64,000 nucleotides of DNA from Lentimicrobiaceae bacterium (GTDB lineage: Bacteria; Bacteroidota; Bacteroidia; Bacteroidales; UBA4417), in assembly GCA_031550085.1 (NCBI GenBank), contig JAVBOY010000002.1, forward strand, positions 17,946-81,945, given 5' to 3'. Made by a program: the position numbers and the translations under genes. The notes beneath the pieces are model-generated. The model made no database searches. It saw nothing but the letters and a program-made list of their open reading frames with translations, and was not told the DNA's origin. Position 1 is the first letter of the stretch, and every line of letters starts with the position of its first letter. Positions 22,567 through 59,676 of the stretch are shown piece after piece.

Positions 22567-23586
22567 ATGATTTCTTTGCTCGAAAACATTTCGCTAAAAC
22601 CTTTCAATACCTTTGGAATTGATGCATCGGCACGTTATTTTGTCGAAATCCATTCGGATGCTGACTTGCAGGAATTAATCGCCGACGGTTTCTTGAAAAA
22701 CCGTTTGCATTTGATTTTGGGAGGCGGAAGCAATGTCTTGTTTACCTCCGATTTCCAAGGAATTGTATTGAAAACCGTACAAAAAGGCATTGCGATCTTG
22801 GAAGAGACGGCGGAATATGTTTGGGTGGAAGCGGCTGCAGGCGAAGTGTGGCAGGATTTTGTGCTTTGGGCGGTAGAACGGAATTACGGCGGCATCGAAA
22901 ATTTATCGCTGATTCCCGGCTGTGTCGGCGCCTCTCCGATTCAAAACATCGGAGCTTACGGCGTGGAAGCCAAAGATACCATCCGCCGGGTGAACGCCTT
23001 GGAATTGCGGACCGGGAAAAAGCATGTTTTCGAAAACAGGGAATGTCGTTTCGGTTACCGGGACAGCATTTTCAAAAAAGAATTAAAGGGAGAATTGATG
23101 ATCGATTCGGTGGTGTTCGAACTTTCTAAAAATCCGGTAATAAACACCGACTATGGCGCCATCCGAAACGAATTGGAAAAGAAAGGAATTAAAAATCCTT
23201 CCATCAAAGACATCAGCGAGCTTATTTGTGAAATCCGTACTGCAAAATTGCCCGATCCGGCCGCCATCGGCAATGCCGGGAGTTTTTTTAAAAACCCGCT
23301 GGTCAACGCCCAAAAAGTGGATGAGCTGAAACAAACCTATCCCAATCTGGTAACCTATCCCCAACCGGACGGAACGGTAAAGCTGGCTGCCGGCTGGCTG
23401 ATCGAGCAATGCAACTGGAAAGGTTATAAAAACAACCAGGTAGGCGTTCATCCCAAACAAGCCCTGATACTGGTGAATTACCAAAATGCTTCGGGCCTGG
23501 AAGTCATTTCGCTGGCCGGGGAAATTCAGCAGTCGGTACGCGAAAAATTTGCGATCGACCTGGAAATGGAAGTAAATGTGTACTAA
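22567..23586 (+). CDS. murB: UDP-N-acetylenolpyruvoylglucosamine reductase
   Basis: Colinear with E. coli-type MurB: SLKPFNTFGI, GGGSNVLF, IPGCVGASPIQNIGAYGVE, CRFGYRDSIFK, NAGSFFKNP, AAGWLIEQC. The ATG at 22567 is preferred to the TTG at 22543. Confidence 0.92.
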   Translation: MISLLENISLKPFNTFGIDASARYFVEIHSDADLQELIADGFLKNRLHLILGGGSNVLFTSDFQGIVLKTVQKGIAILEETAEYVWVEAAAGEVWQDFVLWAVERNYGGIENLSLIPGCVGASPIQNIGAYGVEAKDTIRRVNALELRTGKKHVFENRECRFGYRDSIFKKELKGELMIDSVVFELSKNPVINTDYGAIRNELEKKGIKNPSIKDISELICEIRTAKLPDPAAIGNAGSFFKNPLVNAQKVDELKQTYPNLVTYPQPDGTVKLAAGWLIEQCNWKGYKNNQVGVHPKQALILVNYQNASGLEVISLAGEIQQSVREKFAIDLEMEVNVY

Positions 23587-24674
23587 ACGAAATTTTCTCC
23601 TTTTTCCGCACGTACGGTTTCCACAAACGTTTTGATCCGTTGTTCGTCCGACTTACGGCAAATCAGCAAGGTTCCCGCATCTTCCACCACGATGTAATCA
23701 TTCAACCCCTGAATAATGGCCACCTTTCCGTCGGGAAGGTTGATGATGCTGTTTTCCGTATCGAAGGTGAACACGCTGTCGCCGATCAGGGCGTTCCGGT
23801 GTTCGTTCTTTTCGCTGTTATCATATAAAGAGCCCCAGGTTCCCAAATCGCTCCAACCGAAATCGGCGGGAATCACATATACATTATCCGATTTTTCCAT
23901 AATGCCGTAATCGATCGAAATGCTTTGGCATTGCGAGTAAACGGTGCTGATGGCGGCGGCTTCGTTCGGGGTGTAAAATTCGTTTTTAATTTCGGAAAAT
24001 AAGGCGTTGACATCGGGCAAATGCCGGTCGAAGGCTTTCAAAATGCTTTGCAGCGACCAGATAAAAATTCCGGAATTCCACAGGAAATCGCCGCTTTGAA
24101 CGAATGAAACAGCCAGATCGTATTGCGGTTTTTCGGTGAAAGTGACCACCTTACGGGCGCAATTTTCAAATCCGAAAAGTTCGTTTTCCTTGAATTGAAT
24201 GTATCCATAACCTGTTTCGGGACGGCTGGGCTTGATGCCCAAAGTCAGCAGGCAATCGCTTATGGAAGAGGTTTCCAGTGCGGCCGTAAGTACTTGTGTG
24301 AAAACATCTTCTTTTAAAATGATGTGATCGGACGGAGCCACCACAATTTTTGCATCGGGATTAAGTTTTGCGATTTTGTGGCAGGCATACGCAATGCAAG
24401 GCGCCGTGTTGCGGCGCATGGGTTCGCAAAGCACATGGTCGGCCTTCATTTGCGGCAGTTGTTCCAGTACTTGGTCCTTGTACATTTCGTGGGTAACCAC
24501 AAAAATATTTTCAGGAGGACAAACGGTGGTCAAACGGCGGAAAGTTTGCTGGATCAATGTTTCGCCGGCACCAAAAATATCAATAAATTGCTTGGGGCGT
24601 GAAATGCGGCTCAAGGGCCAAAAGCGGGCGCCCACGCCACCGGCCATAATAATGCTATAGTGATTTTTATTCAT
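23583..24674 (-). CDS. manC: Mannose-1-phosphate guanylyltransferase (nucleotidyltransferase domain only)
   Basis: IIMAGGVGARFWPLSRISRPKQF; 363 aa with no C-terminal isomerase/cupin domain. Confidence 0.8.
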   Translation of the reverse strand: MNKNHYSIIMAGGVGARFWPLSRISRPKQFIDIFGAGETLIQQTFRRLTTVCPPENIFVVTHEMYKDQVLEQLPQMKADHVLCEPMRRNTAPCIAYACHKIAKLNPDAKIVVAPSDHIILKEDVFTQVLTAALETSSISDCLLTLGIKPSRPETGYGYIQFKENELFGFENCARKVVTFTEKPQYDLAVSFVQSGDFLWNSGIFIWSLQSILKAFDRHLPDVNALFSEIKNEFYTPNEAAAISTVYSQCQSISIDYGIMEKSDNVYVIPADFGWSDLGTWGSLYDNSEKNEHRNALIGDSVFTFDTENSIINLPDGKVAIIQGLNDYIVVEDAGTLLICRKSDEQRIKTFVETVRAEKGENFV

Positions 24675-24857
24675 GTAAAAAGTCTATAAAAAAGGATAAT
24701 ATGTTTTTGGATTCCATTCCGGCACAAAAATAGGAAAACAAAATCAATGTGCAAATGAATGCGGAAAGCACGGGGAAAGAAAGCGCGAACGTAGAAGGAT
24801 GTGTAGTCTTTTACAAATAAAAGATATTTTTTATTCGGATGATCTTTTCGTTTTTAT

Positions 24858-24865
24858 TATATTTG
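24858..24865 (+). promoter_or_regulatory. Candidate Bacteroidota -7 promoter box (TATATTTG)
   Basis: Exact match to TAnnTTTG. No convincing coding sequence lies downstream for about 580 nt. Confidence 0.3.
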
Positions 24866-25451
24866 CGACTTAAGAATAAGTGGTTTATACAATGAACCGT
24901 TATTTGCTACATACCGACTTTAGTACCTTTGCAACACAAAACTGCAACAAAGGTCATGTCATGCAAGATCCTATCATGGCTTGTTTTTTTCTATCCCCTC
25001 TCTACACCCAACCAGTTTTACTTTCATCTCTTTTTTTGATTAAAACAAGCATACTTGGCTTGTCTTCCTATATTAGCACATTTGACAAACATTTTTTACT
25101 GAGGAAAAACAATTTTGAACTGAAAAGCTCTGGGTGGCAATCGTTAACGAGTAGAATAGTAAACAATTCTGCACCCAGTGGCAAAAAATATTTTTGATGT
25201 ACCGAGCCTCGCAAGCTTGTGCACATAAAAAAAGCCTTCCTTGCAGGCTATAAATGCAAGGTAAAATAGTAGACGCTATACAAACCGGATTTACAAACCC
25301 AAATACAAGAAAGGCGTAGCAAAGGTACAAGAAATTGCCGGAAAAAGCAGTTTGCCTTGAAACGGCACGTGGTGATTGCATCCGTTGGTGCAGTTTTTAA
25401 GCAGTCCATGTAAATAAACGCGTATTTTTTTTACTTAAAAATCATTTTATT

Positions 25452-25667
25452 ATGAAAAAGATTAATAAAAAGCTGCAATTAAATAAGGAAACGATTGCAA
25501 GACTGGAAAATCCAGATAAGATTAAGGGTGGAGTAGAATTCACTAAAACCTGCACCGATACGAAAAGCAATGCTTCATATTGTTGTCCTGCTTCACAAGA
25601 ATGTTCCTTTGGAGCGACTCAGTGTAATCCGCTTACTTTTCAAGAGTATTGCTTCACAGATAATTAA
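25452..25667 (+). CDS. RiPP precursor peptide with a double-glycine leader and a Cys/Ser/Thr-rich (lanthipeptide-like) core
   Basis: Leader is MKKINKKLQLNKETIARLENPDKIKGG. The 44-aa core VEFTKTCTDTKSNASYCCPASQECSFGATQCNPLTFQEYCFTDN has 6 Cys and 11 Ser/Thr. The leader shape (MKK, KLxLNKETIxxL, GG) is the Bacteroidota natural-product precursor type. Confidence 0.75.
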   Translation: MKKINKKLQLNKETIARLENPDKIKGGVEFTKTCTDTKSNASYCCPASQECSFGATQCNPLTFQEYCFTDN

Positions 25668-25671
25668 TAAA

Positions 25672-25713
25672 AAGGGTTTCCCAATGGCACGATGCCATTG
25701 GGAAACCCTTTTT
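25672..25713 (+). terminator. Strong intrinsic terminator immediately after the precursor gene
   Basis: AAGGGTTTCCCAATGGCA at 25672-25689 pairs with TGCCATTGGGAAACCCTT at 25693-25710 (18-bp perfect stem, 3-nt loop), running into TTTTT. Confidence 0.85.
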
Positions 25714-25738
25714 CGAAACCATATAACAAATCCATATT

Positions 25739-27076
25739 ATGTCAAGTATCGGCTGCAAACTGTCACTTTTCGTTGTTTTAATAATATCCGCAAGTTTTGT
25801 CTACTCGCAGGGATTTGTCCAAGTTACAGGCTGTACGCTATTTTACGACTATCCTGTTGAAGGTGTAAATATTGCGATTGACGGACAGCCAGCTTTCGCA
25901 AAAACCGATTCGAAAGGATTTTTCAGCGTTCAGATTCCCAACAAGCCGCTTACGCTTGTGTTTTCGCATGTGAGCGGCAAAACCAAAAAAGTGAAAATAA
26001 CGGCTTCGATGTTGAGAAAACAAAACGCAGAAAATATTCTTAATTTGGGAAATATCGAAATTGAACTAAAGATTAACGAATTGGAAACCGTCCAAGTAGT
26101 TTCATCCCGAATTGAAAAAGCATACAACAAACCCGAAGCTTGGATATTGGATTACGAAATTGTAAATGGCAACTTGGCTTTGTTGCTTCTCGAAGACAAA
26201 AAACGGCTGATTCGTGCGGTAAATCTCAAAGACAGTACGCTTTTTGAAATACGCACCAAGAAAAAATACCGCAGTTTGTACAAAGATTTTGCAGGAAATT
26301 TACATGCTTTGGCAAGCGATTCGATTTTCCAGTTATTTCCTGATTTTTCGGATTGCTATGCTTATCCTATTTCACGTTACCACGAGCAATTGAAACATTG
26401 TGTCATTAATACGGACAATAGTATGTACCTGCAACTTTTTGGAGATTTCAACCAACAGGTAAACTATTTTAAAGTGGACAAAAAAAGTGGCAAACGCACT
26501 GTTTTAGCAACAGCTTTCGATGAACAGCAAGCCATCTACAATCAAGGGTTTTTATATTATGAAATTCTGGGAAAAAAACCAAAAACGAGCTATTCAAAAG
26601 GATTTATTTTTGACCCCGACCAAATTGACGAACTTTTGGATGCAAATAGGAGTTGGAAAATCCAATATTTTTCAAAAATACTCTGCCGCCCCACCTACCA
26701 GCCTCTAAAACGTATTGGTGATAATCTATATTTATTCAATCATTTGGAAAACAAAATTATCCGCTTTGATTTGGATGGAAACGAACTGGCTGAAATACCT
26801 GCCAATTACGCAAAAGTCGATAAATCGTGGGCAAACGAAATTATTGTAAACGAAGAAGAAACCCGTTGTTTTGCCAAATTCATAAACACCGGTATTGTTA
26901 CACTTAAAGAAATTGACTTGGAAACCGGAAGAATCAAAAATACATTCAAAATCGAACAACATATTTTTCCTGAAAAAATCCGGATTCAAAATAACGAAGT
27001 GTATTATCTCTACCGGGATTATAAAAAGCAAGACCGCAACGAACGCTGCTATTTGTGGAAACAAAAAATGGAATAA
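25739..27076 (+). CDS. Secreted hypothetical protein with a carboxypeptidase-regulatory-like (TonB-receptor-N-terminus-like) domain and an unknown C-terminal region of about 310 aa
   Basis: Signal peptide MSSIGCKLSLFVVLIISASFVYSQ. VTGCTLFYDYPVEGVNIAIDGQPAFAKTDSKGFFSVQIP resembles CarboxypepD_reg. I recognise nothing in the remainder. Confidence 0.6.
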   Translation: MSSIGCKLSLFVVLIISASFVYSQGFVQVTGCTLFYDYPVEGVNIAIDGQPAFAKTDSKGFFSVQIPNKPLTLVFSHVSGKTKKVKITASMLRKQNAENILNLGNIEIELKINELETVQVVSSRIEKAYNKPEAWILDYEIVNGNLALLLLEDKKRLIRAVNLKDSTLFEIRTKKKYRSLYKDFAGNLHALASDSIFQLFPDFSDCYAYPISRYHEQLKHCVINTDNSMYLQLFGDFNQQVNYFKVDKKSGKRTVLATAFDEQQAIYNQGFLYYEILGKKPKTSYSKGFIFDPDQIDELLDANRSWKIQYFSKILCRPTYQPLKRIGDNLYLFNHLENKIIRFDLDGNELAEIPANYAKVDKSWANEIIVNEEETRCFAKFINTGIVTLKEIDLETGRIKNTFKIEQHIFPEKIRIQNNEVYYLYRDYKKQDRNERCYLWKQKME

Positions 27077-27084
27077 ATGAATGA

Positions 27085-27336
27085 TGTTGCAGCATACCAA
27101 ACCAAGCTGGGTACAATCGCCGCTTACCTGAGTTCAGACAGGTTGCCGACTATTGGTTTTCCGAAACTCTGAAAATGGCACGGTTTGACGATGGGTTGGC
27201 CGGGTATAAGGCCTTGCATACCGAGATGGAAAACGAATACGGCATCTTGGAAGGTGTTGCAGGAATCGGTTTGGCTCTGCTATCCTATGTTACTGAAACG
27301 GAGCCCACGTGGGATGAGTGCTTATTGCTAAGCTAA
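27085..27336 (+). pseudogene. Remnant of a LanC-like lanthionine cyclase gene (C-terminal ~83 codons only)
   Basis: The open frame has no start and reads ...RQVADYWFSETLKMARFDDGLAGYKALHTEMENEYGILEGVAGIGLALLSYVTETEPTWDECLLLS*. The G-hydrophobic-x-G-x-AGIGLALL...W...LLL ending is the usual LanC C-terminus. The frame is closed by TGA at 27082-27084 just after the preceding gene. Confidence 0.55.
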
Positions 27337-27468
27337 AAAAGCAGAAAACGACATGACTGAAACAGAACGAACTCCGCAAAAACGACAAACTACAAGCCTT
27401 TCGGCTCCTTTGTGTTTCGTACCATGCACTTCTTTTGCGGAGTTTGCAAAGAATAGCGACGACTTAAT

Positions 27469-28128
27469 TTATCCCTGTCCTGTTTCCGGAATTATTTCCA
27501 TTTGCCCTGAAACCAAGTAAAGCCGTCCGGTTTCAACGCATTGGCATTTGAAACGTGTGCGCTGTTTTTCCAATTTCAAAAATTGCCTTCCCGACAAGTT
27601 TTTAAAAACAGCGTTTTCGGCTATATCTGCAACCACATAGCGTGCGCCTTTGCCATCGAGTTTGTGCAATATCGTTAGAAGTTTTGGATGACGGTGCGAA
27701 GCGCTAACAGCAGCCGATAAGTTATTTTGCAAAAATGAATTTAATTCCGGTGGCAAAATCTGTTTTTCAACAATGGCATGCAACATGCCGCTGAATATTT
27801 CTTTCCACTCGGATCCGTGTGGTTTTACAGCGTTTTTGTAATTGTTCCAAACCAACAAATGAGCCAGCTCGTGCATAAACACAAGAAAAAAAGTATATTT
27901 ACCCAAATCGCCATTCATGACGATTTTGTGTGGCAGCTTTGTATTTCTAATGTTGGGAATAAAAGTCCCTAACTGCACTTTGCGCGGATTGCCGATGTGC
28001 AAACGGAAAAATGATTTTCGAAAGCAAGAAACCACTATTTCGATAGTTTCCAAAGGAAAATATTTTTCGAGGATTTTTATATCGGAGTCTGTCATCCTTT
28101 TCAACAGTTTTTTACACAATAAACCCAT
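27469..28128 (-). CDS. SprT-like zinc metalloprotease domain protein
   Basis: Contains the HExxH motif in FLVFMHELAHLLVW and a C-terminal Cys-containing tail (FKCQCVETG). The start is uncertain: ATG at 28128 or 28095, and the track TTG at 28134. Confidence 0.65.
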   Translation of the reverse strand: MGLLCKKLLKRMTDSDIKILEKYFPLETIEIVVSCFRKSFFRLHIGNPRKVQLGTFIPNIRNTKLPHKIVMNGDLGKYTFFLVFMHELAHLLVWNNYKNAVKPHGSEWKEIFSGMLHAIVEKQILPPELNSFLQNNLSAAVSASHRHPKLLTILHKLDGKGARYVVADIAENAVFKNLSGRQFLKLEKQRTRFKCQCVETGRLYLVSGQMEIIPETGQG

Positions 28129-28330
28129 TTGCAAACGGCAAAGGTATTTTTATTTACTTTATGTTTTTTAATGCCTCAAAATGAAATTATATGCCATAAA
28201 AAAGTCTTCTATTCTCAAAAGAATCAAGGAGTTTTGTCAAACTTGTCCTTAAAAAAACTAGTTGCGCGAAGCAATCAAAATTTCGAGCATTTTGATAACG
28301 CAATTTTCACATTGCCAAGATTTTTTTTAA

Positions 28331-28359
28331 TTTGCATATCAAATTTGTTTTTATATTTG
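28331..28359 (+). promoter_or_regulatory. Candidate Bacteroidota promoter for the ABC pair (-33 TTTG, -7 TATATTTG)
   Basis: TTTG lies at 28331-28334 and TATATTTG at 28352-28359, with a 17-nt spacer. It sits about 100 nt upstream of the ATG at 28459. Confidence 0.4.
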
Positions 28360-28458
28360 GCCGTGCAATTCAGATAAAATCATAAACAAAGAAGCGATTA
28401 CACGTTTTTGGAGCACATAAAATAGGAATAAAATTCCTTAATTAACATAATAGTTATT

Positions 28459-29391
28459 ATGAATGATGCTTGGCAGATAGAAACAAAAAACCTGAGTTTC
28501 CAATACAATCGTAGAATAGTTGTTGATAGCATCAACCTATGTGTTCCAAAGGGAAGTATTTACGGATACCTTGGAAAAAACGGCGCTGGAAAAACCACTA
28601 CTCTTAAATTGCTGTTGGGCTTGTTACCAAGCAATCCGGATACTATTTTTTTTAATGGAAAAAATTTCGCAAAAGAATCCGTAAAAACACATTATAGTAT
28701 TGGGAGTTTGGTAGAATCTCCTGCTTTATATGCCCATTTGACAGCTTTTGAGCAACTAAAATATGTTGATTATTTCTTCAAAAAAGGAAAGCAACGTATT
28801 TTGGAAGTGCTTGATTGGGTTGGGTTGCAAAATGATAAAAATAAGAAAATCAACCACTTTTCAACAGGAATGAAACAGCGTTTGGCGCTTGCTGTAGCTT
28901 TATTCCACGATCCAGAGATGCTCATTCTCGATGAACCGATAAATGGGCTTGACCCAAACGGAATTTACGAAATACGTGAACTTCTTCTGCGCATCAACAA
29001 ACAACAAAATAGAACCATTTTGTTTTCAAGCCATATTTTAAGCGAAGTTGAAAAAATATGCACACATATTGGCATTTTGGATCATGGGAAATTATTGTTT
29101 CAAGGAGACATTAAGAACTTGCCTTCTTCCACGCTTCGCCGGAAGGTCTGTGTGCGTACAAACAAAGCTGAATACGCTGTAGAAGTGTGTGTGGCTAACA
29201 GCATTCATGCAATCTTGGAAAATAGCAATGAATTTTATTTTTTCCCTGCAAACGATTTAGATTTCCATAAAACGATTTGCCTATTAACGAGCAACTCCGT
29301 GGAAATATACAGCACAAATACGCTTTCTGATAGTTTAGAATCCATATACATTGATCTTGTTAGCAAAAAAGAACATGGTACAGCAAACTAA
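28459..29391 (+). CDS. ABC transporter ATP-binding protein, ABC-2 / lantibiotic-protection type
   Basis: Walker A GKNGAGKTT, signature FSTGMKQRL and Walker B MLILDEP. Overlaps the permease gene that follows. Confidence 0.85.
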   Translation: MNDAWQIETKNLSFQYNRRIVVDSINLCVPKGSIYGYLGKNGAGKTTTLKLLLGLLPSNPDTIFFNGKNFAKESVKTHYSIGSLVESPALYAHLTAFEQLKYVDYFFKKGKQRILEVLDWVGLQNDKNKKINHFSTGMKQRLALAVALFHDPEMLILDEPINGLDPNGIYEIRELLLRINKQQNRTILFSSHILSEVEKICTHIGILDHGKLLFQGDIKNLPSSTLRRKVCVRTNKAEYAVEVCVANSIHAILENSNEFYFFPANDLDFHKTICLLTSNSVEIYSTNTLSDSLESIYIDLVSKKEHGTAN

Positions 29392-30136
29392 TTTTTGGGA
29401 TACTTTTTGTGCAGAATTCTACAAATCAAGGAAAAATTTGGGATTTTATATTTTAATAATTTTTCCGGTATTTACGACCTCGATAGTTTTTTTGTACTAC
29501 TGCCACCATGTAAATAATTTTGACCCCGAATTAAATCATTGGATGAATTTTACGCGGTACCTATTTTTATTTTACATGTTTATTTATCCTATGGCTGTTT
29601 CGTTTTCGGCATATTCTGTTATGCACATTGAGTATAAAAATAATGCTATCAAACATTTGTTTACATTGCCGGTTCCAAAACCAATATTTTACTTGTCAAA
29701 AATTGCCCTACTCTTTGCCGTCATTATTTTTTCTTTACTGCTTTGCTACGGTTTATTGATTCTATCCGGAAATCTGTTGAACTATTTTTACCCCCAATTA
29801 TTATTTCACAGTTATGATATACGGCTGGTTCTTAGTGTACTATTTGTTAAGAGCTTATTTTCATTGTTGTGCGTTGCTCTTGTGCAGTTGCTTTTGTGCA
29901 TGTTGTTTCGCAGTTTTGTTGTTTCATTGAGTTTTGCTTTGTTTTTTACCATTTTTGGATTTGTTGCCAGCAAATGGGAATACGCATTTCTAAACCCTTA
30001 TAGCGGAGTCTTGTCAGCCTTTTTATCTTTTTTCAAACAAAATTCGCTTATTTTTCAAAAAGATACCATTTTTGCGATATGTACCACAATTATTACCTTG
30101 GTACTAGGATATTTCATTTTCAGAAAATTGAAATAA
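29375..30136 (+). CDS. ABC-2 type permease (6 TM), immunity-type partner of the preceding ATPase
   Basis: Highly hydrophobic, about 253 aa. The ATG at 29375 overlaps the ATPase stop by 17 nt. The track start at 29351 is a TTG. Confidence 0.7.
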   Translation: MVQQTNFWDTFCAEFYKSRKNLGFYILIIFPVFTTSIVFLYYCHHVNNFDPELNHWMNFTRYLFLFYMFIYPMAVSFSAYSVMHIEYKNNAIKHLFTLPVPKPIFYLSKIALLFAVIIFSLLLCYGLLILSGNLLNYFYPQLLFHSYDIRLVLSVLFVKSLFSLLCVALVQLLLCMLFRSFVVSLSFALFFTIFGFVASKWEYAFLNPYSGVLSAFLSFFKQNSLIFQKDTIFAICTTIITLVLGYFIFRKLK

Positions 30137-30270
30137 GGAATTACTAAAAAGTATAGATAATAATTTCGTACTCTTCTGATTATAAGTATAATTCAAAATG
30201 ATCTCTGCCAAAATTTACCAATTCCTATCGGAGAAATTCTAGTTTTCCCATTACAAAAAAGTAAAGAATC

Positions 30271-31509
30271 ATGAAAAACAATTTAATTTTAATTTCATTG
30301 CTTATTCTGTTTCTTGCCGCAGTACCCGTTCAAGATAATAACAATAAACCAATTTTTTCGGAAAGCGAGGAATATTTTATCCCTTTTCAAATAATTGATA
30401 GCCATTTGTATGTAACAGTCAAAATCAATAACAAAGTAACTGCTTTGCTTTCTGTTGATAATGGTTGTCCCGATCTCCATTTAACTGAATCGTTTGCAAA
30501 AAAACATGCAGAAGCGTTAGGACTCACATTTTATCCTGATATGAAATCTGTAAGCTATTTCCCTGGTAGTCCAAATCAAAAATGCTATATTGCACAAGGA
30601 AACTTGTTTTTCCAAGTAAAAGATTCTATTTTCGAGAATCAAACAGAATCTTTATATTATTCAAATCATGACATTATAAAAAATCATTGTTCTATTCTGT
30701 CTTCCGGAGACATTCTACAATTTTTACCTGCTGAAGCTGCCGGAATTATTCCATTAAAGTGTTTGGTAAAGAACAATTTAATTCGAATCAATTTTCGAGA
30801 CAATCGCATAGAATTTCCCTCCCGAATTGATTCTACGCTGAAAAAAGAATATAACGAATATGATTACAAAACTGTGAACCGACTTCAGGTAGTTCAATAC
30901 CCCATAACTTTTTCGGATACCAAAGGAATGCAAAAAACATTTTCATTCAAAACTGTTTTTGATTTAGGTTTCGGAGGAAATTTTAGTTTTCTTAATACAA
31001 AGATTGTCTCGCTGGCAAAACAATTTGAAAGCAAAAACTATGAATCTTCATTCCGTTTTTTTGACGAAATAATAGCCGGAAAAGATAAACTAAAATTGAA
31101 CTACATAAATATTGTTTCATCCAATACAAATATGCCTTTTGACATGCTTGTTGGAATAAAAATTTTGTCCAACTACGATATTTATTTTGATTATAAAAAT
31201 TCGAAAATTTACACCAAAGCCTTATCGAAAGATAAGTTTTCACTATCCCCTTCATCAGCTCCGGGCTTTTTTACTGTAACAAAAAAGAGAGATAATGCTT
31301 ATATTCAATGTCATATTACAGCCATAAACCCGGCTACAAGTAAATTTTCATATAAACTGTACGACGAGATTTTAGCAGTTGATAATGTGTACTTACAAAT
31401 GCTGTCTTTGGATAGTGCAAAAAGATTGCTGGTAAATAGAGATGAGATTCAGATCCTGTTAATAAAAAGAAATCAAGATACGCTATTATTAAAGCGTGAC
31501 CGAGAATAA
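30271..31509 (+). CDS. Secreted protein with two retropepsin-like (clan AA aspartyl protease) half-domains and a C-terminal PDZ-like domain
   Basis: Has a signal peptide. HLYVTVKINNKVTALLSVDNGCPDLHLTESFAKKH and KTFSFKTVFDLGFGGNFSFL match the retropepsin active-site-loop pattern, with DTG replaced by DNG and DLG. The C-terminal ITAINPATSKFSYKLYDEILAVDNV...ILLIKRNQDTLLL is PDZ-like. Confidence 0.55.
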   Translation: MKNNLILISLLILFLAAVPVQDNNNKPIFSESEEYFIPFQIIDSHLYVTVKINNKVTALLSVDNGCPDLHLTESFAKKHAEALGLTFYPDMKSVSYFPGSPNQKCYIAQGNLFFQVKDSIFENQTESLYYSNHDIIKNHCSILSSGDILQFLPAEAAGIIPLKCLVKNNLIRINFRDNRIEFPSRIDSTLKKEYNEYDYKTVNRLQVVQYPITFSDTKGMQKTFSFKTVFDLGFGGNFSFLNTKIVSLAKQFESKNYESSFRFFDEIIAGKDKLKLNYINIVSSNTNMPFDMLVGIKILSNYDIYFDYKNSKIYTKALSKDKFSLSPSSAPGFFTVTKKRDNAYIQCHITAINPATSKFSYKLYDEILAVDNVYLQMLSLDSAKRLLVNRDEIQILLIKRNQDTLLLKRDRE

Positions 31510-31619
31510 AAAGCTGCACTTGTCCGTTAGAATTCAGGATAGATAAACTTTTTGAACTTAATTTTGATTGACTTGGAATCACGTAAGTAATTTATTTATA
31601 GTAATTTTAGTTTTCTTAT

Positions 31620-32120
31620 TAGTTTAGATGGCAACCGCGAGTACCACTCGCACCGTGTAATAAAAAACATCCGCCTGCTCAAAGACCGGCATCCCGATTA
31701 TTTCGAAAAGCGTGTAAACTTTAATGCCGTGCTCACAACCGCAGCACTTATGAGGATGTATACCACTTTATCAAAGATGAATTTGGTAAAATCGCCAATA
31801 TCACTGCGCTAAACGATATCGGCATTCGCGATGATAAGAAGGAGTTGTTTATGGCAACCTACCGCAACCCCAACCAAAGCCTGATGCAATCGGAACATTA
31901 CGATGAAATAGAAAAGGAAATGTTTATCAAATCGGGCAAAAAAACCAAAACATCACCGCCGGAGAAACTTTGCTGACCATTGTTCCCAACGATTCGGCAA
32001 CAGTTGGACTTATCACAAGAAATGCAAGGCTCAGCCGAAATTATTACCCATGACTTGCGCCTACTCGATCGCTTCCTAAACCCTATAAAATCGGTATTGA
32101 AAAGGCAAAAGCGTAGTTAG
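31620..32120 (+). pseudogene. Frame-broken gene remnants; the last part resembles the C-terminus of a HlyD-family (bacteriocin-export accessory) protein
   Basis: Hand translation in shifting frames gives ...ITAGETLLTIVPNDSATVGLIT... then, in another frame, EMQGSAEIITHDLRLLDRFLNPIKSVLKRQKRS*. No ORF of 60 aa or more occurs here. Confidence 0.45.
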
Positions 32121-32185
32121 TGAAAAGTTGACAATGGACAATAAGTTTTTGCAGAAAGCAGAAGGCAAAAGCAGTTGATTTAAGC

Positions 32186-32227
32186 AAAAAATCCTTCGAA
32201 TACCGAAACCGGCATTCGAAGGATTTT
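32186..32227 (-). terminator. Intrinsic terminator downstream of mutB
   Basis: AAAATCCTTCGAAT at 32187-32201 pairs with ATTCGAAGGATTTT at 32214-32227. A U-run follows on the minus strand. Confidence 0.75.
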
Positions 32228-32246
32228 CAATCTTAAAAAGAAAAAA

Positions 32247-34385
32247 CTATTTCCGCGATTCAATTAAAATTTCCAACATTTTAATCGCGCAATCGGGAAT
32301 TTTAGTTCCGGGACCAAATACGGCTACCGCTCCCGAATCATACAGGAATTGGTAATCCTGTGCCGGAATTACGCCTCCCACAATGACCATAATGTCCTCG
32401 CGGCCCAGTTTTTTTAATTCTTCAATGACTTGCGGCACCAACGTTTTGTGTCCGGCAGCCAAACTGGAAACGCCTAGAATATGAACGTCGTTTTCCACCG
32501 CCTGGCGTGCGGCTTCAGCCGGTGTTTGGAACAAGGGACCGATGTCCACGTCGAAGCCGATATCGGCATAGCCGGTTGCAACTACTTTGGCGCCTCGGTC
32601 GTGCCCGTCCTGCCCCATCTTGGCAATCATGATGCGCGGGCGGCGGCCTTCCAATTCGGCAAACTGATCGGCCATTTGGCAGGCTTTCTTAAAGTCGTCG
32701 TCGTTTGCCGACTCGCCTGAATAAACTCCTGATATGGATCGTATCACAGCTTTATACCTTCCGTAAACTTTTTCTAATGCAGAACTGATTTCTCCCAACG
32801 AAGCGCGTTTGCGGGCCGCGTCAATGGCTAATTCCAGAAGATTTCCTTCGTTGGTTTCGGCGCAACGGGTCAATGCGGCCAAAACAGCATCGACGTCGGC
32901 CTGGTTGCGGTTGGCGCGCAATTGTTTCAAGCGTTCGAGCTGCGCCAAACGAACGGCCGTATTGTCCACTTCCAAAATTTCGAGCGGATCTTCTTTTTCC
33001 AGGCGATATTTGTTCACGCCCACAATGGTTTCCTTGCCTGCATCAATGCGTGCCTGTTTGCGGGCAGCCGCTTCTTCGATGCGCATTTTGGGAATTCCGG
33101 TTTCGATGGCTTTGGCCATACCGCCCAATTCTTCCACTTCCTGAATCAAGGCCCAGGCTTTGTGCGCAATTTCGTGGGTCAGACTTTCCACATAATAGGA
33201 ACCGGCCCACGGATCGACCACACGGCAGATGTTGGTTTCTTCCTGTAAATAAATTTGCGTGTTCCGGGCAATACGGGCCGAAAAATCGGTAGGTAATGCA
33301 ATGGCTTCGTCCAATGCATTGGTATGCAACGATTGGGTGTGTCCCAATGCAGCGCCCAGGGCTTCGATACAAGTGCGGGTGACGTTGTTGAACGGGTCTT
33401 GTTCCGTCAAGCTCCAGCCCGAAGTTTGCGAGTGGGTACGCAACGCCATGCTCTTGGGATCTTTGGGATTGAACTGGCGGACAATTTTAGCCCAAAGCAA
33501 ACGGGCGGCACGCATTTTGGCGATTTCCATAAAATGGTTCATGCCGATGGCCCAGAAAAACGACAAGCGCGGCGCAAACGAATCGATCGGAATGCCGGCT
33601 TCAATGCCTTTGCGAAGGTATTCCAATCCGTCGGCCAACGTGTAGGCCAATTCGATGTCGGCGGTAGCTCCGGCTTCTTGCATGTGGTAGCCCGAAATGG
33701 AAATGGAATTGAATTTCTTCATGTTTTTGGAAGTAAATTCAAAAATGTCGGCAATGATTTTCATGGAAGGAATGGGCGGATAGATGTAGGTGTTCCGCAC
33801 CATAAATTCCTTCAAAATATCGTTTTGGATGGTTCCGCTCAATTTATCCATGGACACGCCTTGTTCTTCGGCGGCTACAATGTAAAAGGCCAAAATCGGC
33901 AACACGGCGCCGTTCATGGTCATGGAAACCGACATTTTGTCCAACGGAATCTGGTCGAACAAAATTTTCATATCCAGAATAGAATCAATCGCCACACCGG
34001 CTTTTCCTACGTCGCCAACCACACGTTCGTGGTCGGAATCGTATCCTCGGTGGGTTGCCAGGTCAAACGCAACGGAAAGCCCCATTTGGCCGGCGGCCAA
34101 GTTGCGACGGTAAAAAGCGTTCGATTCCTCGGCAGTGGAAAATCCTGCATATTGGCGGATTGTCCAGGGTTTCATAACATACATGGTGCTGTACGGTCCG
34201 CGTAAAAACGGGGTAATTCCGGCAGCGTATTGCAAGTGTTCCATGTTTTTAAGGTCGTCGGCCGTGTAAACGGCTTTTACCTCTATTTGCTCGTTGGTCA
34301 TCCAGTTTGCACCATCACCGTTGGCTTGCGAGCCTTCGGACTGTACCGGAGCTTTGTAATCCAGATGTTTAAAATCGGGTCGCAT
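32247..34385 (-). CDS. mutB: Methylmalonyl-CoA mutase large (alpha) subunit
   Basis: 712 aa with a TIM-barrel substrate domain and a C-terminal B12-binding domain carrying [10 protein letters not shown] (DxHxxG). Confidence 0.93.
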
Positions 34386-37000: not shown

Positions 37001-37759
37001 TTACCCTTTATTTGAAGGTTTCAGGCGGCGGGTTAATCCGGTACCGAATATAAAATCGCTCAGTTCGGTGTTGTCGGTATGGAGAACGTTGTGCTGGTCG
37101 CCTTCCCACCAGATTTTGCCGTTGTAAAGGAAGTATATTTTCTCGCCGATTTCCAGCACGGAATTCATATCGTGGGTTACTACCACCGTAGTCATGTTAA
37201 ACTCGTGGGTCAACTCGTGGATGAGGGCGTCGATTAAGGCCGAGGTCAGCGGATCCAGACCGGAGTTGGGTTCGTCGCAGAACAGGTATTTGGGATTCAT
37301 GGCAATGGCGCGGGCAATGGCGACGCGTTTTTTCATGCCGCCGCTCAATTCGGAGGGATAGAGTTTGTTTGCGTTCTCGAGGTTGACACGTTGCAGGCAC
37401 CAGTTGGCTCGGTCGCGCTTTTCGGCCGGGCTCATTTTTGAAAACATGGTGAGGGGAAATTCCACGTTTTCTTCAGCCGTCATGCTGTCGAACAAAGCGC
37501 CTCCCTGAAACAGCATGCCGAGTTCCTGGCGGATGACTTTCGTTTCTTCGTACGACATTTTCGAGAATTGCCGGCCATCGTAAAGCACCTGTCCGTTATC
37601 GGGTTCCAATAGGCCTACCAGGCATTTGAGCAATACGGTTTTCCCCATGCCACTTTGCCCGATGATAAGATTGGTTTTTCCTTTGTCCAGTTGAATGCTG
37701 ATGTCATCCAACACCAGCCGGTCGCCAAATTTTTTGGTAATATGTCTTGTTTCGATCAT
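37001..37759 (-). CDS. mlaF: MlaF-like ABC transporter ATP-binding protein
   Basis: Walker A GQSGMGKT, signature LSGGMKKRVAIARA and Walker B LFCDEPNSGLD. Overlaps the MlaE-like permease gene by 4 nt. Confidence 0.8.
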   Translation of the reverse strand: MIETRHITKKFGDRLVLDDISIQLDKGKTNLIIGQSGMGKTVLLKCLVGLLEPDNGQVLYDGRQFSKMSYEETKVIRQELGMLFQGGALFDSMTAEENVEFPLTMFSKMSPAEKRDRANWCLQRVNLENANKLYPSELSGGMKKRVAIARAIAMNPKYLFCDEPNSGLDPLTSALIDALIHELTHEFNMTTVVVTHDMNSVLEIGEKIYFLYNGKIWWEGDQHNVLHTDNTELSDFIFGTGLTRRLKPSNKG

Positions 37760-38496
37760 GCCAACAAAATTTGGGTAAGAATCAGGTTTGAAAAGATGAC
37801 CGCAATACTACTCCAAACAACGCCTTTGGTGCTGGCCTCGCCGACTTCCAATGCGCCGCCGCTGGTGTAAAATCCGTGGTAAGCGGATACGGATGTGACG
37901 ATAAACGCAAAGACCACGGTTTTAATGAGGGCATACCAGATGTCGTACATTTTGAAAAAGGCTTGCACGCCATATACAAACACTTCGGAAGATACCGTAT
38001 GGGTGGCCGTTCCGGCAAACCATCCTCCGCCAATGCCCAATACCATGCTCATCATGATTAAAAAAGGAAAAATCAGGATGGCGGCTACAATTTTAGGTAG
38101 AATCAAGTAAGAGGCGGGATTGATTCCCATGATTTCCAGGGCATCCACTTGCTCGGTCACGCGCATGGTGCCGAGTTCGGAGGCGATTCGGGAACCGACT
38201 TTCCCGCAAAGGATGAGGCTGATGATGGTGGGCGAAAATTCGAGGACGATGGATTGGCGTGTGGCAAATCCCACAGTATACAGGGGAATCAACGGACCAT
38301 CGATTTGAAACGCAGTTTGGATACAAACCACGGCGCCCATAAAAACCGAAATAATCGCCACAATGGCGATGGATTGCATGCCGATGTGATCGATTTCAAG
38401 CAATATTTGCCTGCGATAGATTGATTTTTTTTCAGGTTGTTTAAATACCTGCTTCATCAAAATCAAATATCGGCCAATATGGTAGAAAATCTTCAT
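37756..38496 (-). CDS. mlaE: MlaE-family ABC transporter permease
   Basis: Polytopic protein with the MlaE-like ELGTMRVTEQVDALEIMGINP motif. The ATG at 38496 is preferred to the track TTG at 38517. Confidence 0.8.
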   Translation of the reverse strand: MKIFYHIGRYLILMKQVFKQPEKKSIYRRQILLEIDHIGMQSIAIVAIISVFMGAVVCIQTAFQIDGPLIPLYTVGFATRQSIVLEFSPTIISLILCGKVGSRIASELGTMRVTEQVDALEIMGINPASYLILPKIVAAILIFPFLIMMSMVLGIGGGWFAGTATHTVSSEVFVYGVQAFFKMYDIWYALIKTVVFAFIVTSVSAYHGFYTSGGALEVGEASTKGVVWSSIAVIFSNLILTQILLA

Positions 38497-38565
38497 CGGT
38501 AACAATAATTCTTGCAAATTTGCGTATTTTTTTAACTCCGTGATCCTAAAATTGTTTTCTTTTTT

Positions 38566-46551: not shown

Positions 46552-49500
46552 TTATTGTTTTATCACCTTTGCTATTTTTCCGTCTACTTTTAAAATATAC
46601 GAACCTTTCGCAAGCGATGATAGATCTAAAGTCGCTTTGGTTTCTCCCACATTTGTCCGCTCAATCAACAACCTTCCGATTACATCGTAAACTTGAATGG
46701 TGTTGATTTTCGACTTTTCATTGTCGATGGTGATGCGGCCGGTTGTAGGATTCGGGTAAACTTGCAGTTTCGCCAAACGTGCCTCGTCGACACCATCGAT
46801 GATGAACATGGCTTGTATCACATGGTTTGTGATTACATTGTCAAACGTATACGTCGAAACCGCGCCTACGCTCGTACCGTCAACCATGACTCTGTCGATC
46901 TGGTAAAGCGGGCTGGGCGTAATGGTAAATGTTTTGCTTTCGCCCGAATTTACCGTAATGGTTCCAACAGGGGAAATGGTTCCTCCGATACCGGCGGATG
47001 CCACAATGGTATATACGCCTGCAACAAATTCGGCTTCAATGGTATGATTGGCTTGTACATTGGTAAATGTATAGGTGCCGCTCAAAACGGAACCCGGAAC
47101 ATTCACACCGTCAACCAGTATCGATTTAATCACATAACCCGGATCCGCCGTAATGGTGAAAATCTTGTCGTTTCCTTCCGGTACCGTTACATCACCCGAT
47201 GGGGTAATGGTTCCATTGGGACCTGCCGTTGCTGTGATGATGTAGGAAGTACCTTCTTCAAATACGGCAACATACTCTGCTTCTTCGGTTACAGGGAAAA
47301 TATACGGGTTTGAGGTAGAAACGGCTACGCCGGCTTTTTGCCATTCTTTCAAACGGTACCCGGGTACGGGAGTCGCCTTCAGGATTGCATTATCATTCGG
47401 ATTGAACAGGCCTCCCCCGACAACATATCCCATATCGGAATTATCGCTTCTTACGGTAACCGAGAAAGTCTTATTTTGTAAAGATCTTGTGTCAAAGTTA
47501 AAATGCTGAGCTGCGGACACATAAGTTGTTCCTAGACCATAAGCCTGAATCCAGTTCATGAAAATTCCATAGTCATTGGATCTAAAGGAATAGGATTTAG
47601 TATCATAGCATTCATTAGCATAACGTACCGAAGCAACTAGCGAATTAAATTCTTTATCAAACAGGAGAATATCCAGGTTCTCGGTTATATATGAACTACC
47701 GCCGGAATACGAATCAAACATCAAATACAAAGTATCGCTGTGATATATCAGCCCTTTGGTCGATATCAATGTTTGGTACGACGGTTCTACCAAATCTTTC
47801 CCCTCGTCCCCCCATTTCAGACTCCCGTCTTTGCTTATAACTTGTCCCTTCAAGAAATAGTAAACAGAACCACCGGCTACAGTCGCAGCAGTAGCAAAAG
47901 CCAAGGTATTTTCGTCGGAATTTTCGTTACGGACAACAGCCGGCCATCCGTACAAGCGAGGACGTTGCGGGTCGTTGGATACCGCTACTCCGGTGGATCC
48001 GATTTGAGGCTCTAAATTATCATCCAGATATTGCACATAATAAGTTCCCCTGAAAAGCAAACTGGAATAGCAAACCCATAAACCGGATTGCAGAGAGTTT
48101 TCCGTATCAAACAATAATATAGAAGCTCCATCCATTCCCGATTCCGTCACCGTTACCGGGCTCGACAAGGTAGGCGTAAGATCTGAATCGAACACTTGCA
48201 AATACAGTGAACCATTCGCTCCTCCGTAAGTCACAAACAAACGATCTTGCTTATCAAATTCCATCGTAGAAACGTTTTGGTTGACGGTTTTGATAATCTG
48301 GCCGGTAGCCTTGTTTATTTTGTGAATTTTGCCCGTATTTGTGGCCATATAAATATTGTTGCGACTGTCTGTCCTGAGAAATGTGGCGACTACCAAGCCG
48401 ATTGCTCCCGGAGAAATCACAACGCCTTCATTACCAAATAATTGTTGGCCTGTTGGAGATGTTTTCCAGATACGTAATTCTCCGAGAGTCTGTTGGCTGG
48501 CATTCCGGTACATATTCGTATACCCCACGATGAGGTTTCCTTCCTTATCGGCTTCAGAGGTATTTACGATAGCAAATGTCAAGCGGTTGTCGGAGATTTG
48601 GATTCCTTCACTTGCAAACTGTTGATGTCCGGCTTGATTCAAATATTGGGCAAACTCATTGAAGTTCCCACCTTTGTTTTGAGAGAAAGCAACAAACAAA
48701 TTACCGTCTTTGGTCAAACTGGCTCTTCCGCCTCCGACGTTGGTCAGACCATCGGAAGCTAGTACCGGGTAATCCACATTGCCGTATCCCGGCCGAATGA
48801 TCATGTAGGCAGTGTCGTTGCCATGGTTCATGTCCTCGCCCAAAGAGGTATAGGCCTTCAAATAATGATCGCCGGGAGCCGACAGATCAAGCGTGTGCGT
48901 GAACGTGTGGCGGTATACGGAATCTGGCCGTAGCGGCGTAGAGAAAGTAACCATGTCTGAAAGAAGGTTCATGCCGTCTGCCAAACAGGAAACTTGGGCT
49001 CCATCGAGCGGATTTGCCCCATAATTCCTAATATCAACAATAACGGTTGTTGTGGAGGTACATTGCAGACTCATTACCGGAGACACGATGCGCACCACAC
49101 CCAAGTCTTTATTAATAAATGTGACACTCTTCGTCACCATATTGTTTGCAGGAACTTCATCTCCCGGGTAAGAAGCGGTAACCGATAATACATAGGTTTT
49201 TACCTGCGACATATCAATCGTGTTGGGGAAGGTATAAATAACCGTGCCTTTGATCGGCAGGTTAACCGCTCCTCTCAGCAGTTCTACCCCATCAACTTTG
49301 CAAGACAGAGGCACTGTCAACGGGATGGAGGTGTTGTTTCGCAGCGAAACCGTTACACTTTCCGTCCCTGTTAACGGACCTGTTTCCGGCGCAATAATGG
49401 CAATCATTTCAACATCCAATGTTTCGTTGGTCGTGTAAACAGTTGTCGTTAACGTATCATTTAAACGGTTTACATCTCCGGCACAAGTCACATAGGTTTT

Positions 49501-53139: not shown

Positions 53140-53604
53140 AAAAGTGTAATTTATTTTTCGAAAATTAATTTTCAGTAAAAAAATGAGGGTACGAAGGTAA
53201 CTACATTTGGTATACCGGTGCAAATAATGCCTATATATAAAGTGTCACAAAAAAAAATACACACAACTGGTAACCAATTGCTTATTTATTTAATTTTGTT
53301 TCTTTGGAAATTTGCTCAACTGAAAAAGAAATTTTAACTTTGAAATTGCAAGATTTACCTTAAAAACGATCTCAATTCAAAATTCGAACAACGTATATTC
53401 AGAAAGTATACCCTAAAAATCAGTTTTTTTTTACTATACAGTTTAAACAAGTTCTACTTAAAAAAGTTGACTGGAATTTCGAAAAATATTTAATTAATTA
53501 AAAAAAATGTAATGACTTAAAATTTAATTTTTTATTGTTTTTCGTTTCTTAATTTTGGCATTTCAACTTATGTGTATGACTTTTTGTCCGTTTGTTTTGC
53601 AGTT

Positions 53605-59354: not shown

Positions 59355-59676
59355 GTTTAGTTGAGGTGTTGAGTTGTTGAGTTGTTGAATCGTTGAACTG
59401 TTTAATTAGTGAAGCGTGAATGCCTGTTTAATTGTTTAACTGTTTAATTGTTGAGTTGTTGAATTAGTGAAGTGTGAACGGTGAGTTGTTTGTTGAACTG
59501 TTGAATCGTTGAGTTGTTGAATTGTTTATTGAAAAACATTCATTTTCAACGCTCAATTTTCAATTAACAAGCAGATTTCTCCATTTCGCTTCGCTCCAGT
59601 CGAAATGACCCGGAATTCATCCTTCATCATTATTTGTAATTTTTAATTCTTCATTTTTAATTCGTAATTTTTAATA
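59355..59676 (+). repeat. Mosaic intergenic word-repeat element (copy C)
   Basis: Contains GTTGAGTTGTTGAA and GTGAAGCGTGAATGCCTG word tracts, M1 at 59500-59567, M2 at 59561-59610 and TTCGTAATTTTTAAT words. It fills the whole 322-bp gap. Confidence 0.85.

Follow-up and report, generated by a model that had tools for sequence, protein, structure and literature searches.

Probable remains of two RiPP loci around a SprT-like protease gene in a Lentimicrobiaceae bacterium

Cassettes of the families TIGR04148, TIGR04149 and TIGR04150 are common in gut Bacteroides and encode a radical S-adenosylmethionine (radical-SAM) maturase, a precursor peptide with a double-glycine (GG) leader and a pseudo-radical-SAM (pseudo-rSAM) protein, respectively. 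No experimental characterisation of such cassettes was found in the searchable literature. Some of these GG-Bacteroidales cassettes include an HlyD-type adaptor (PMC4573289), and in B. fragilis an unidentified "lipoprotein" or "signaling protein" stands right after each TIGR04149 peptide (PMC4573289, PMC10352776). Class I lanthipeptide clusters of Bacteroidetes (pinensin type) are a second system, in which the leader of the precursor LanA has the pattern LxLxKx5L...GG (PMC7268733). Here we describe a locus at 24675-32246 of a 64-kb stretch of Lentimicrobiaceae DNA (contig JAVBOY010000002.1; the whole stretch is called the window). It probably holds two decayed, horizontally acquired loci for peptides that ribosomes synthesise and that are modified post-translationally (RiPPs), one on each side of a native sprT gene, and the genes that survive would serve immunity. 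The main features are as follows.

24675-27468, insertion (block) A, 2.8 kb, which parts manC from sprT
25452-25667, plus strand, intact precursor of 71 aa, with leader MKKINKKLQLNKETIARLENPDKIKGG and a 44-aa core (6 Cys, 11 Ser/Thr)
25669-25713, no strand, perfect 21-bp hairpin like an intrinsic terminator, directly 3′ of the precursor (repeat I1, 100% complementary)
25739-27076, plus strand, exported protein of 445 aa whose N-terminal part is a CarboxypepD_reg-like domain (PF13715, 34.6 bits); GC content at third codon positions (GC3) 0.374
27127-27336, plus strand, LanC cyclase remnant, last ~65-70 codons (PF05147 positions 314-350 of 350)
27469-28134, minus strand, SprT-like metalloprotease gene, apparently native, between insertions A and B (PF10263, 26.3 bits)
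28135-32246, insertion (block) B, 4.1 kb, which together with mutB-mutA parts sprT from mlaEF
28459-29391, plus strand, intact ATP-binding cassette (ABC) ATPase, 310 aa (PF00005, 104 bits)
29351-30136, plus strand, intact ABC-2 permease of 261 aa, whose gene overlaps that of the ATPase (PF12730 ABC2_membrane_4, 56.9 bits; cut-off 27)
30271-31509, plus strand, intact 412-aa exported protein with two aspartic-protease-like lobes and a C-terminal PDZ domain
31594-31934, plus strand, remnant of a radical-SAM peptide maturase (TIGR04148), residues ~132-256 of 414, in two frames with a shift near 31734
31946-32120, plus strand, remnant of an HlyD-type adaptor, C-terminal ~55 codons, frame-shifted

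The order of genes is thus precursor with hairpin, 445-aa open reading frame (ORF), C-terminal piece of LanC, SprT-like gene on the opposite strand, ABC ATPase and ABC-2 permease, 412-aa ORF, debris and mutB. An initial annotation, made from the sequence alone, had given this order together with the intact or decayed state of each gene, and both were borne out by the ORF and domain scans. It had also described the whole as one block differing in composition from its flanks. The GC content of 24675-32246 was 0.356, the lowest among all 7.57-kb windows of the 64 kb (mean 0.429). In 1-kb windows between 25001 and 32000 it was 0.305-0.378, except for 27001-28000 (0.432), while the upstream flank had 0.43-0.47 and the mutB side 0.48-0.50. 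The GC3 of genes of the AT-rich stretch was 0.27-0.37, against 0.517 ± 0.063 in 34 other genes of the window. The difference in composition therefore stands, and the hand counts of 20, 21 and 30 G+C per 60 nt on which it had been based were exact on recount. A finer GC profile showed 0.42-0.45 at 27050-27650 and in the debris at 31700-32150, so that the AT-rich signal consists of two blocks and not one. The SprT-like gene had intermediate values (GC 0.396, GC3 0.423).

For synteny, the ManC protein was scanned against the GTDB collection with each species represented by a single genome, and the 80 best loci were searched by tblastn with the window proteins. All ManC relatives in these loci were distant (identity ≤61%). 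A sprT homologue lay directly upstream of manC and co-directional with it in 18 of the 80 loci, all from Bacteroidota, with gaps of ~55-290 bp, and within 1.5 kb of manC in three further ones. Beyond sprT, a divergent mlaE-mlaF pair was usually found in the relatives. According to this comparison the ancestral layout was mlaF-mlaE followed by sprT-manC, and the SprT-like gene is, as judged from its neighbours, a core gene and not island cargo. As the adjacency of sprT and manC is conserved in distant relatives, the "island" resolves into two insertions, and its earlier description as a single island including the SprT-like protease has to be given up. In the window, 37756-38517 and 37001-37759 encode MlaE and an ABC ATPase; this mlaEF pair is inverted relative to its orientation in relatives (e.g. 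loci L007, L011, L019 and L021) and has block B and mutB-mutA between itself and sprT, which indicates a local rearrangement besides the insertions. We also considered that mutAB might adjoin the manC-sprT locus in relatives, which was never seen in the 80 loci. The comparison of the manC-mutB junction that had been proposed as a check thus recovered the sprT-manC layout, but with relatives of at most 61% ManC identity it yielded neither an empty site nor a full cluster.

Insertion A resembles the Bacteroidetes class I lanthipeptide clusters in several respects. The precursor leader scored 28-31 bits against NF038153 lant_leader_L1a (cut-off 22) and has the LxLxKx5L and GG elements of the pinensin type (PMC7268733), and further downstream on the precursor's strand comes a LanC C-terminus. 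The leader MKKINKKLQLNKETIARLENPDKIKGG aligned well with six class I lanthipeptides annotated by the Prokaryotic Genome Annotation Pipeline on a Spirosoma plasmid (KLSLDKETISRL...GG). The LanC piece (27127-27333) aligned to residues 321-379 of 380 and 324-393 of 394 of the Chondrinema and Spirosoma LanC, respectively; it amounts to ~17% of the length, its zinc-ligand region is absent, and it does not qualify as an intact LanC. The GC content of 27068-27336 was 0.476. Both reference clusters are intact and include LanB, and that of Spirosoma also includes a peptidase-containing ABC transporter (PCAT). Unlike these clusters, the window has neither LanB nor PCAT, and the 445-aa gene stands in the enzyme position. 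No trace of LanB was detected by tblastn in 24500-32400, nor a LanB domain among the 19 window ORFs scanned. A search for PCAT in the AT-rich stretch gave generic ATPase similarity, with no C39 or transmembrane part. Block A represents the remains of a class I lanthipeptide cluster, of which the precursor and terminator as well as the final ~70 codons of LanC are left, with the unrelated 445-aa gene at the place of LanB and most of LanC.

The core of the precursor had no relative in 5.8 billion protein clusters, where a word-indexed search matched the precursor itself only, and no match of the precursor was found in plasmids. We asked whether this peptide might be the missing TIGR04149 peptide of block B; it scored 6.9 bits against TIGR04149 (cut-off 25), and this identification was rejected.

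The 445-aa protein belongs to a family with 32 homologues, whose neighbours elsewhere are era/deoC, dnaJ/grpE with an AAA_14 ATPase, or a two-component system. RiPP enzymes never stood beside family members in the contexts examined. No relative of the protein was found in the PDB by sequence, and exact-protein look-ups of it, of P0001 and of P0002 returned no record. A possible equivalence with the outer-membrane barrel protein that adjoins LanC in Spirosoma was rejected, as there was no similarity. We regard it as an unrelated exported protein and not as a candidate maturation enzyme. In a Bacteroidales metagenome-assembled genome (L003, 1-4124), an AAA_14/DUF4143 ATPase gene is flanked by two paralogues of the family, and weak homologues lie within ~9.5 kb of manC in loci L006 and L046.

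Insertion B contains the remains of a different system. Between the 412-aa gene and mutB there are ~740 bp of broken frames, in which a fragment of the TIGR04148 maturase, missed in the initial annotation, was recognised. The joined frames (six-frame reading of 31510-32250) matched TIGR04148 with an E-value of 4.8e-24 at positions 161-257 of 411. The fragment scored 85 bits against a cut-off of 300 and is thus not an intact maturase; its N-terminal Fe-S motif and SPASM part are gone. It is 52-54% identical to the intact enzymes of loci L090 and L091, with an 11-codon deletion, and its GC content is 0.405. This fragment assigns block B to a second, non-lanthipeptide RiPP system. The following debris contains a stretch (32016-32099) with 57% identity to residues 414-441 of 444 of the HlyD adaptor of an Aureibacter plasmid, which follows a peptidase-domain ABC transporter as its PCAT partner. 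Although the tail gave no hidden Markov model (HMM) match, this identity upholds its earlier description as an HlyD-like C-terminus. No trace of cassette precursors was detected near the 412-aa gene by tblastn, and no remnant of a TIGR04150 pseudo-rSAM was found in the AT-rich stretch or among the 19 scanned ORFs. The initial annotation was right in taking the locus as RiPP-related and decayed, and the leader of its precursor as that of a RiPP; that no LanB, intact LanC or C39 exporter is present holds for the whole 64-kb window. Block B comes from a radical-SAM cassette and not from a lanthipeptide cluster. In sum, all maturation and export genes of both blocks are deleted or broken.

The Aureibacter locus (L092, 2661-9096; plasmid pAT1) is itself a bacteriocin-export cluster with a VKOR-family protein, two small hypothetical peptides, a PCAT and the HlyD adaptor. 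VKOR domains recur beside such exporters; in L091 one is fused to the pseudo-rSAM.

The 412-aa protein upstream of the debris had no Pfam or NCBIfam match, and a word-indexed search of 5.8 billion protein clusters matched the protein itself only. An exhaustive HMMER pass over 1.84 billion representatives gave 18 matches besides the window's own (E ≤ 0.001), so that the family is very rare, and a metagenome scan with a two-sequence alignment of the family detected no relatives. An AlphaFold2 model built on a 14-sequence family alignment had a mean predicted local distance difference test (pLDDT) of 82.6 (the single-sequence model, with pLDDT 33, was useless). Foldseek matched this model to pepsin-like proteases (cathepsin D, cardosin and renin) with a best E-value of 2.5e-11 over ~350 columns, a template modelling score (target) of ~0.5-0.57 and 9-15% identity to solved proteases, and retropepsin-like viral proteins were matched too. 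The C-terminal ~80 residues were identified as PDZ by a profile match against the PDB (E 4e-4), and 4 of 14 family members had a Pfam PDZ_2 match. According to the model, the protein has a bilobal aspartic-protease fold followed by a C-terminal PDZ domain, in line with its earlier description as retropepsin-like with PDZ. It shares the bilobal fold and one conserved Asp per lobe with pepsin-like (A1) and retropepsin-like (A2, DDI1) proteases, and the C-terminal PDZ with PDZ-assisted periplasmic proteases such as Ctp. It differs from A1 and A2 proteases in its lobe motifs, DNG and DLG, and a role as partner of a RiPP precursor has not been described for those families. D63 is kept in at least 90% of the family and D231 is invariant; the window copy keeps all invariant family residues.

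Members of this family were found in the following loci of relatives.

L087, a 76-aa Cys-rich GG-leader peptide, family member P0035 and a radical-SAM N-terminus (CNLRCKYC)
L088, a TIGR04149 peptide (33 bits) and P0036
L089, a truncated copy of the cassette peptide and P0037
L090, three peptides resembling precursors (the two that were scanned matched TIGR04149 at ~46 bits), each with a paralogue of its own behind it, and after them TIGR04148 (559 bits) and TIGR04150 (338 bits)
L091, an integrase/primase element, a peptide, P0040, TIGR04148 (541 bits), a TIGR04150-VKOR fusion and a PCAT

Wherever the context could be read, in five relatives, a TIGR04149-type precursor stood directly before the family member (truncated in L089). 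Three contigs were long enough to show what follows, and in each it was a radical-SAM maturase: TIGR04148 in L090 and L091, and in L087 an N-terminus with CxxxCxxC only. The TIGR04150 scores in L090 and L091 were 338-389 bits. The paralogues of L090 are P0043, P0044 and a PDZ-less 279-aa form (hhalign E 8e-5). The window order, the 412-aa gene and then TIGR04148, is the same as in L087, L090 and L091, and the window protein is 31-39% identical to the cassette copies over the full length. Judging from these five contexts, the 412-aa family is a regular, unnamed member of the TIGR04148/04149/04150 cassette, and its link to TIGR04149 peptides is a noteworthy new result. The cassette had a GC content of 0.27-0.34 in other hosts against 0.39-0.45 for neighbouring genes, and among the cassette genes of each locus the 412-aa homologue had the lowest GC content or nearly so. 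That the cassette is AT-rich in other hosts too explains the composition pattern in the window.

Some details of these loci may be added. The precursor gene upstream of P0037 in L089 (27-92) breaks off where its leader ends (MKLNKINSQRLTEKEMNNIKV*) and is another decayed cassette precursor. In L090 (9663-18566), a LytTR gene lies between the first two pairs of peptide and paralogue, and a single TIGR04148/TIGR04150 pair comes after. In L091 (653-5743 and 7103-13185), the intact cassette lies beside a tyrosine integrase, HTH_17 genes and a DUF3987 primase, and looks like cargo of an integrative element. This neighbourhood, together with the low GC content of the cassette in other hosts, speaks for horizontal transfer.

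Block B shares with the GG-Bacteroidales cassette the 412-aa gene followed by TIGR04148, the distal HlyD tail and the AT-richness. It differs in having no TIGR04149 peptide, pseudo-rSAM or PCAT, and in the ABC-2 pair at the precursor position. It represents the remains of such a cassette with an intact ABC-2 pair upstream. The full cassette would have comprised a TIGR04149 peptide, the 412-aa-family protein, TIGR04148, the TIGR04150 pseudo-rSAM, a PCAT and an HlyD-type adaptor; the place of the adaptor in this order is conjectural, as it was in none of the fetched cassettes.

The ABC pair is intact, as had been noted before. The ATPase has as its best NCBIfam match the lantibiotic protection ABC ATPase TIGR03740, and the pair most resembles lantibiotic-protection transporters, though below the cut-offs. 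With the LanFE(G) immunity transporters (TIGR03740/TIGR03733) it shares the two-gene arrangement of ATPase and ABC-2 permease and the PF12730 permease; it differs in that both scores are below the NCBIfam cut-offs and in having no second permease and no LanI. The nearest relative reached is a two-gene module on a Spirosoma plasmid (ATPase 46% identical, permease 27% identical over 211 aa), which adjoins a histidine kinase/LytTR pair and transposases. No close relatives of the permease were detected in the metagenome scan. On these similarities the label "immunity-type" for the pair seems reasonable.

The intact survivors are the precursor, the unrelated exported 445-aa protein, the ABC-2 pump and the 412-aa protein. 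We suggest that the pump and the 412-aa protein were kept because they are protective. The pump would expel a membrane-active peptide, and the exported aspartic-protease-fold/PDZ protein would bind or cut its cognate peptide outside the cytoplasm, so that the strain would resist the peptides of its neighbours without paying for production. The lanthipeptide-type precursor would then be an orphan leftover. The retention of the 412-aa gene for protection is deduced from the layout of L090, with one paralogue per precursor, and from the invariant family residues, all of which the window copy keeps while its neighbours are shattered. Like orphan bacteriocin immunity genes, the putative protection genes of the window are intact beside inactivated biosynthesis genes; different from these, remains of two RiPP classes stand side by side and the immunity function is inferred. 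Of the three readings that had been offered initially (a decaying locus retained for immunity, a precursor matured in trans, and another maturation route formed by the secreted proteins), the first is the best fit. The third is not supported as regards the 445-aa family, which has no RiPP context. The 412-aa protein, as the other member of that supposed route, is indeed linked to RiPPs, but to a radical-SAM cassette with its own precursor family and not to the window precursor.

Several observations weigh against decay with retained immunity. The fully intact precursor, backed by a strong terminator, could still be in use, and maturation genes were sought within the 64 kb only, so that maturation in trans is compatible with the result. 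The ATPase scored 231 bits against TIGR03740, below the cut-off of 309.75, and 196 bits against GldA; the permease scored 20.7 bits against TIGR03733 MutG (cut-off 117). In the other radical-SAM cassettes (L090 and L091) no such ABC pair was seen, which leaves position as the only link between the pair and either RiPP system. The lobe motifs of the 412-aa protein, D63-N-G and D231-L-G, are not the canonical D-T/S-G, and the Cys of lipoprotein type that follows the signal peptide in most of the family is missing from the window copy; the location and catalysis of the protein are therefore uncertain. The sprT homologues are only 26-37% identical, and neither an empty site nor an intact ancestral cluster was found in the GTDB scan, which had no ManC relative above 61% identity.

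The intact precursor ORF with its perfect terminator hairpin raises the question of whether the peptide still works, being matured in trans by LanB and LanC (or a split LanB) and exported by a PCAT, all encoded at another place in the genome, with the local ABC pair as immunity. The leader score above the family cut-off, the intact LanFE-like ABC pair and the frequent occurrence of several LanA genes in one Bacteroidetes cluster would agree with this. We regard it as quite improbable, since no maturation gene lies within 64 kb and nothing related to the core peptide turned up in 5.8 billion clusters; moreover, a LanC pseudogene lies 60 bp past the next gene, a sign that the machinery once stood here and was lost. 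Another view holds that neither the ABC-2 pair nor the 445-aa protein is connected with RiPPs and that the site is a recombination-prone spot gathering unrelated AT-rich accessory genes together with RiPP debris. It could draw on the 445-aa family with no RiPP context, on the nearest relative of the ABC pair by transposases and a LytTR two-component system, on the ATPase score below the family cut-off, and on the rearrangement of the locus relative to relatives, with mlaEF inverted and mutAB interposed. Nevertheless, the best family of the ATPase is still lantibiotic protection, the permease is ABC2_membrane_4, and the pair lies 135 bp upstream of the 412-aa gene in the same orientation with no predicted terminator between them, which leaves this view rather doubtful.

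The 412-aa protein has to be considered in its own right. Proteases, the Ctp C-terminal protease among them, commonly receive their substrates through PDZ domains. With a bilobal aspartic-protease fold, the Asp of both lobes conserved in the family, PDZ profile matches that include Ctp, and a fixed place between precursor and maturase, the protein might be a maturation or processing protease of radical-SAM peptides, for instance one that trims a long C-terminal part of the core after export, and would then be the last undecayed gene of the cassette. We consider this unlikely. The motifs are DNG and DLG and not D-T/S-G, leader removal is already explained by the GG leader and PCAT (PMC10352776), and the gene is full-length with its invariant residues kept among shattered neighbours. 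In addition, one paralogue per precursor, as in L090, fits a specificity pairing such as immunity better. A precursor gene with its own partner gene is the layout typical of bacteriocin-immunity pairs, and it is this resemblance of L090 that suggests the 412-aa protein as a possible immunity factor. More generally, we tentatively propose that the family is a dedicated and hitherto undescribed partner of TIGR04149 peptides in Bacteroidales, one per precursor, acting as immunity factor or extracytoplasmic processor, and that the window copy may be an orphan protection gene that outlived the maturase. We still prefer decay of two loci with retained immunity for the locus as a whole.

The borders and the non-coding parts have three further features.

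24675-25451, no strand, non-coding AT-rich stretch (GC 0.355) from manC to the precursor, left end of insertion A
28352-28359, plus strand, possible promoter TAnnTTTG (-7-like), ~100 nt upstream of the ABC ATPase, a consensus match only
32188-32227, no strand, 18-bp hairpin with 94% complementarity (repeat I4), right border, directly past the mutB stop codon

The 780-bp stretch 24675-25451 is an unusually long intergenic region for the window, and six-frame translation showed no convincing ORF in it. No Rfam matches were found in 23000-33000. Bacteroidetes -7-like motifs occur at 24858, 24924 and 25189 on the plus strand; the TAnnTTTG motif is not enriched in the window, where it was found 77 times against 66 ± 8 expected. 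Counts of sigma-70-type promoters and of terminators were at chance level, the hairpin of the precursor excepted. No tRNA gene was found in the 64-kb window, no convincing repeats at the block borders and no integrase match among the 19 ORFs scanned, in agreement with what had been reported initially for integrase, tRNA and direct border repeats. The idea of a classical genomic island with mobile-element borders was rejected on these grounds; a deviant composition was found. Elsewhere in the window, 46552-53223 encodes a 2223-aa protein that has domains of the CARDB and InlB B-repeat-like types and, at its C-terminus, a sorting domain for type IX secretion, and 57042-62019 on the minus strand encodes two adjacent tandem MacB-like permeases of ~775 aa (MacB_PCD and FtsX).

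The locus is a case of ordinary bacteriocin-cluster decay in an uncultured Bacteroidales bacterium, and decayed clusters with surviving immunity-like genes are already known. Genome-mining pipelines would flag the precursor, from which no product is to be expected. Island calling should allow for cases such as this one, in which two insertions on either side of a native gene looked like one AT-rich "island" and only the synteny with distant relatives revealed the structure. In at least some TIGR04148/04149/04150 cassettes each precursor is directly followed by a conserved, unnamed protein that combines an aspartic-protease fold with a PDZ domain. If this protein is indeed an immunity or processing factor, it would offer a handle on what the cassette peptides do.

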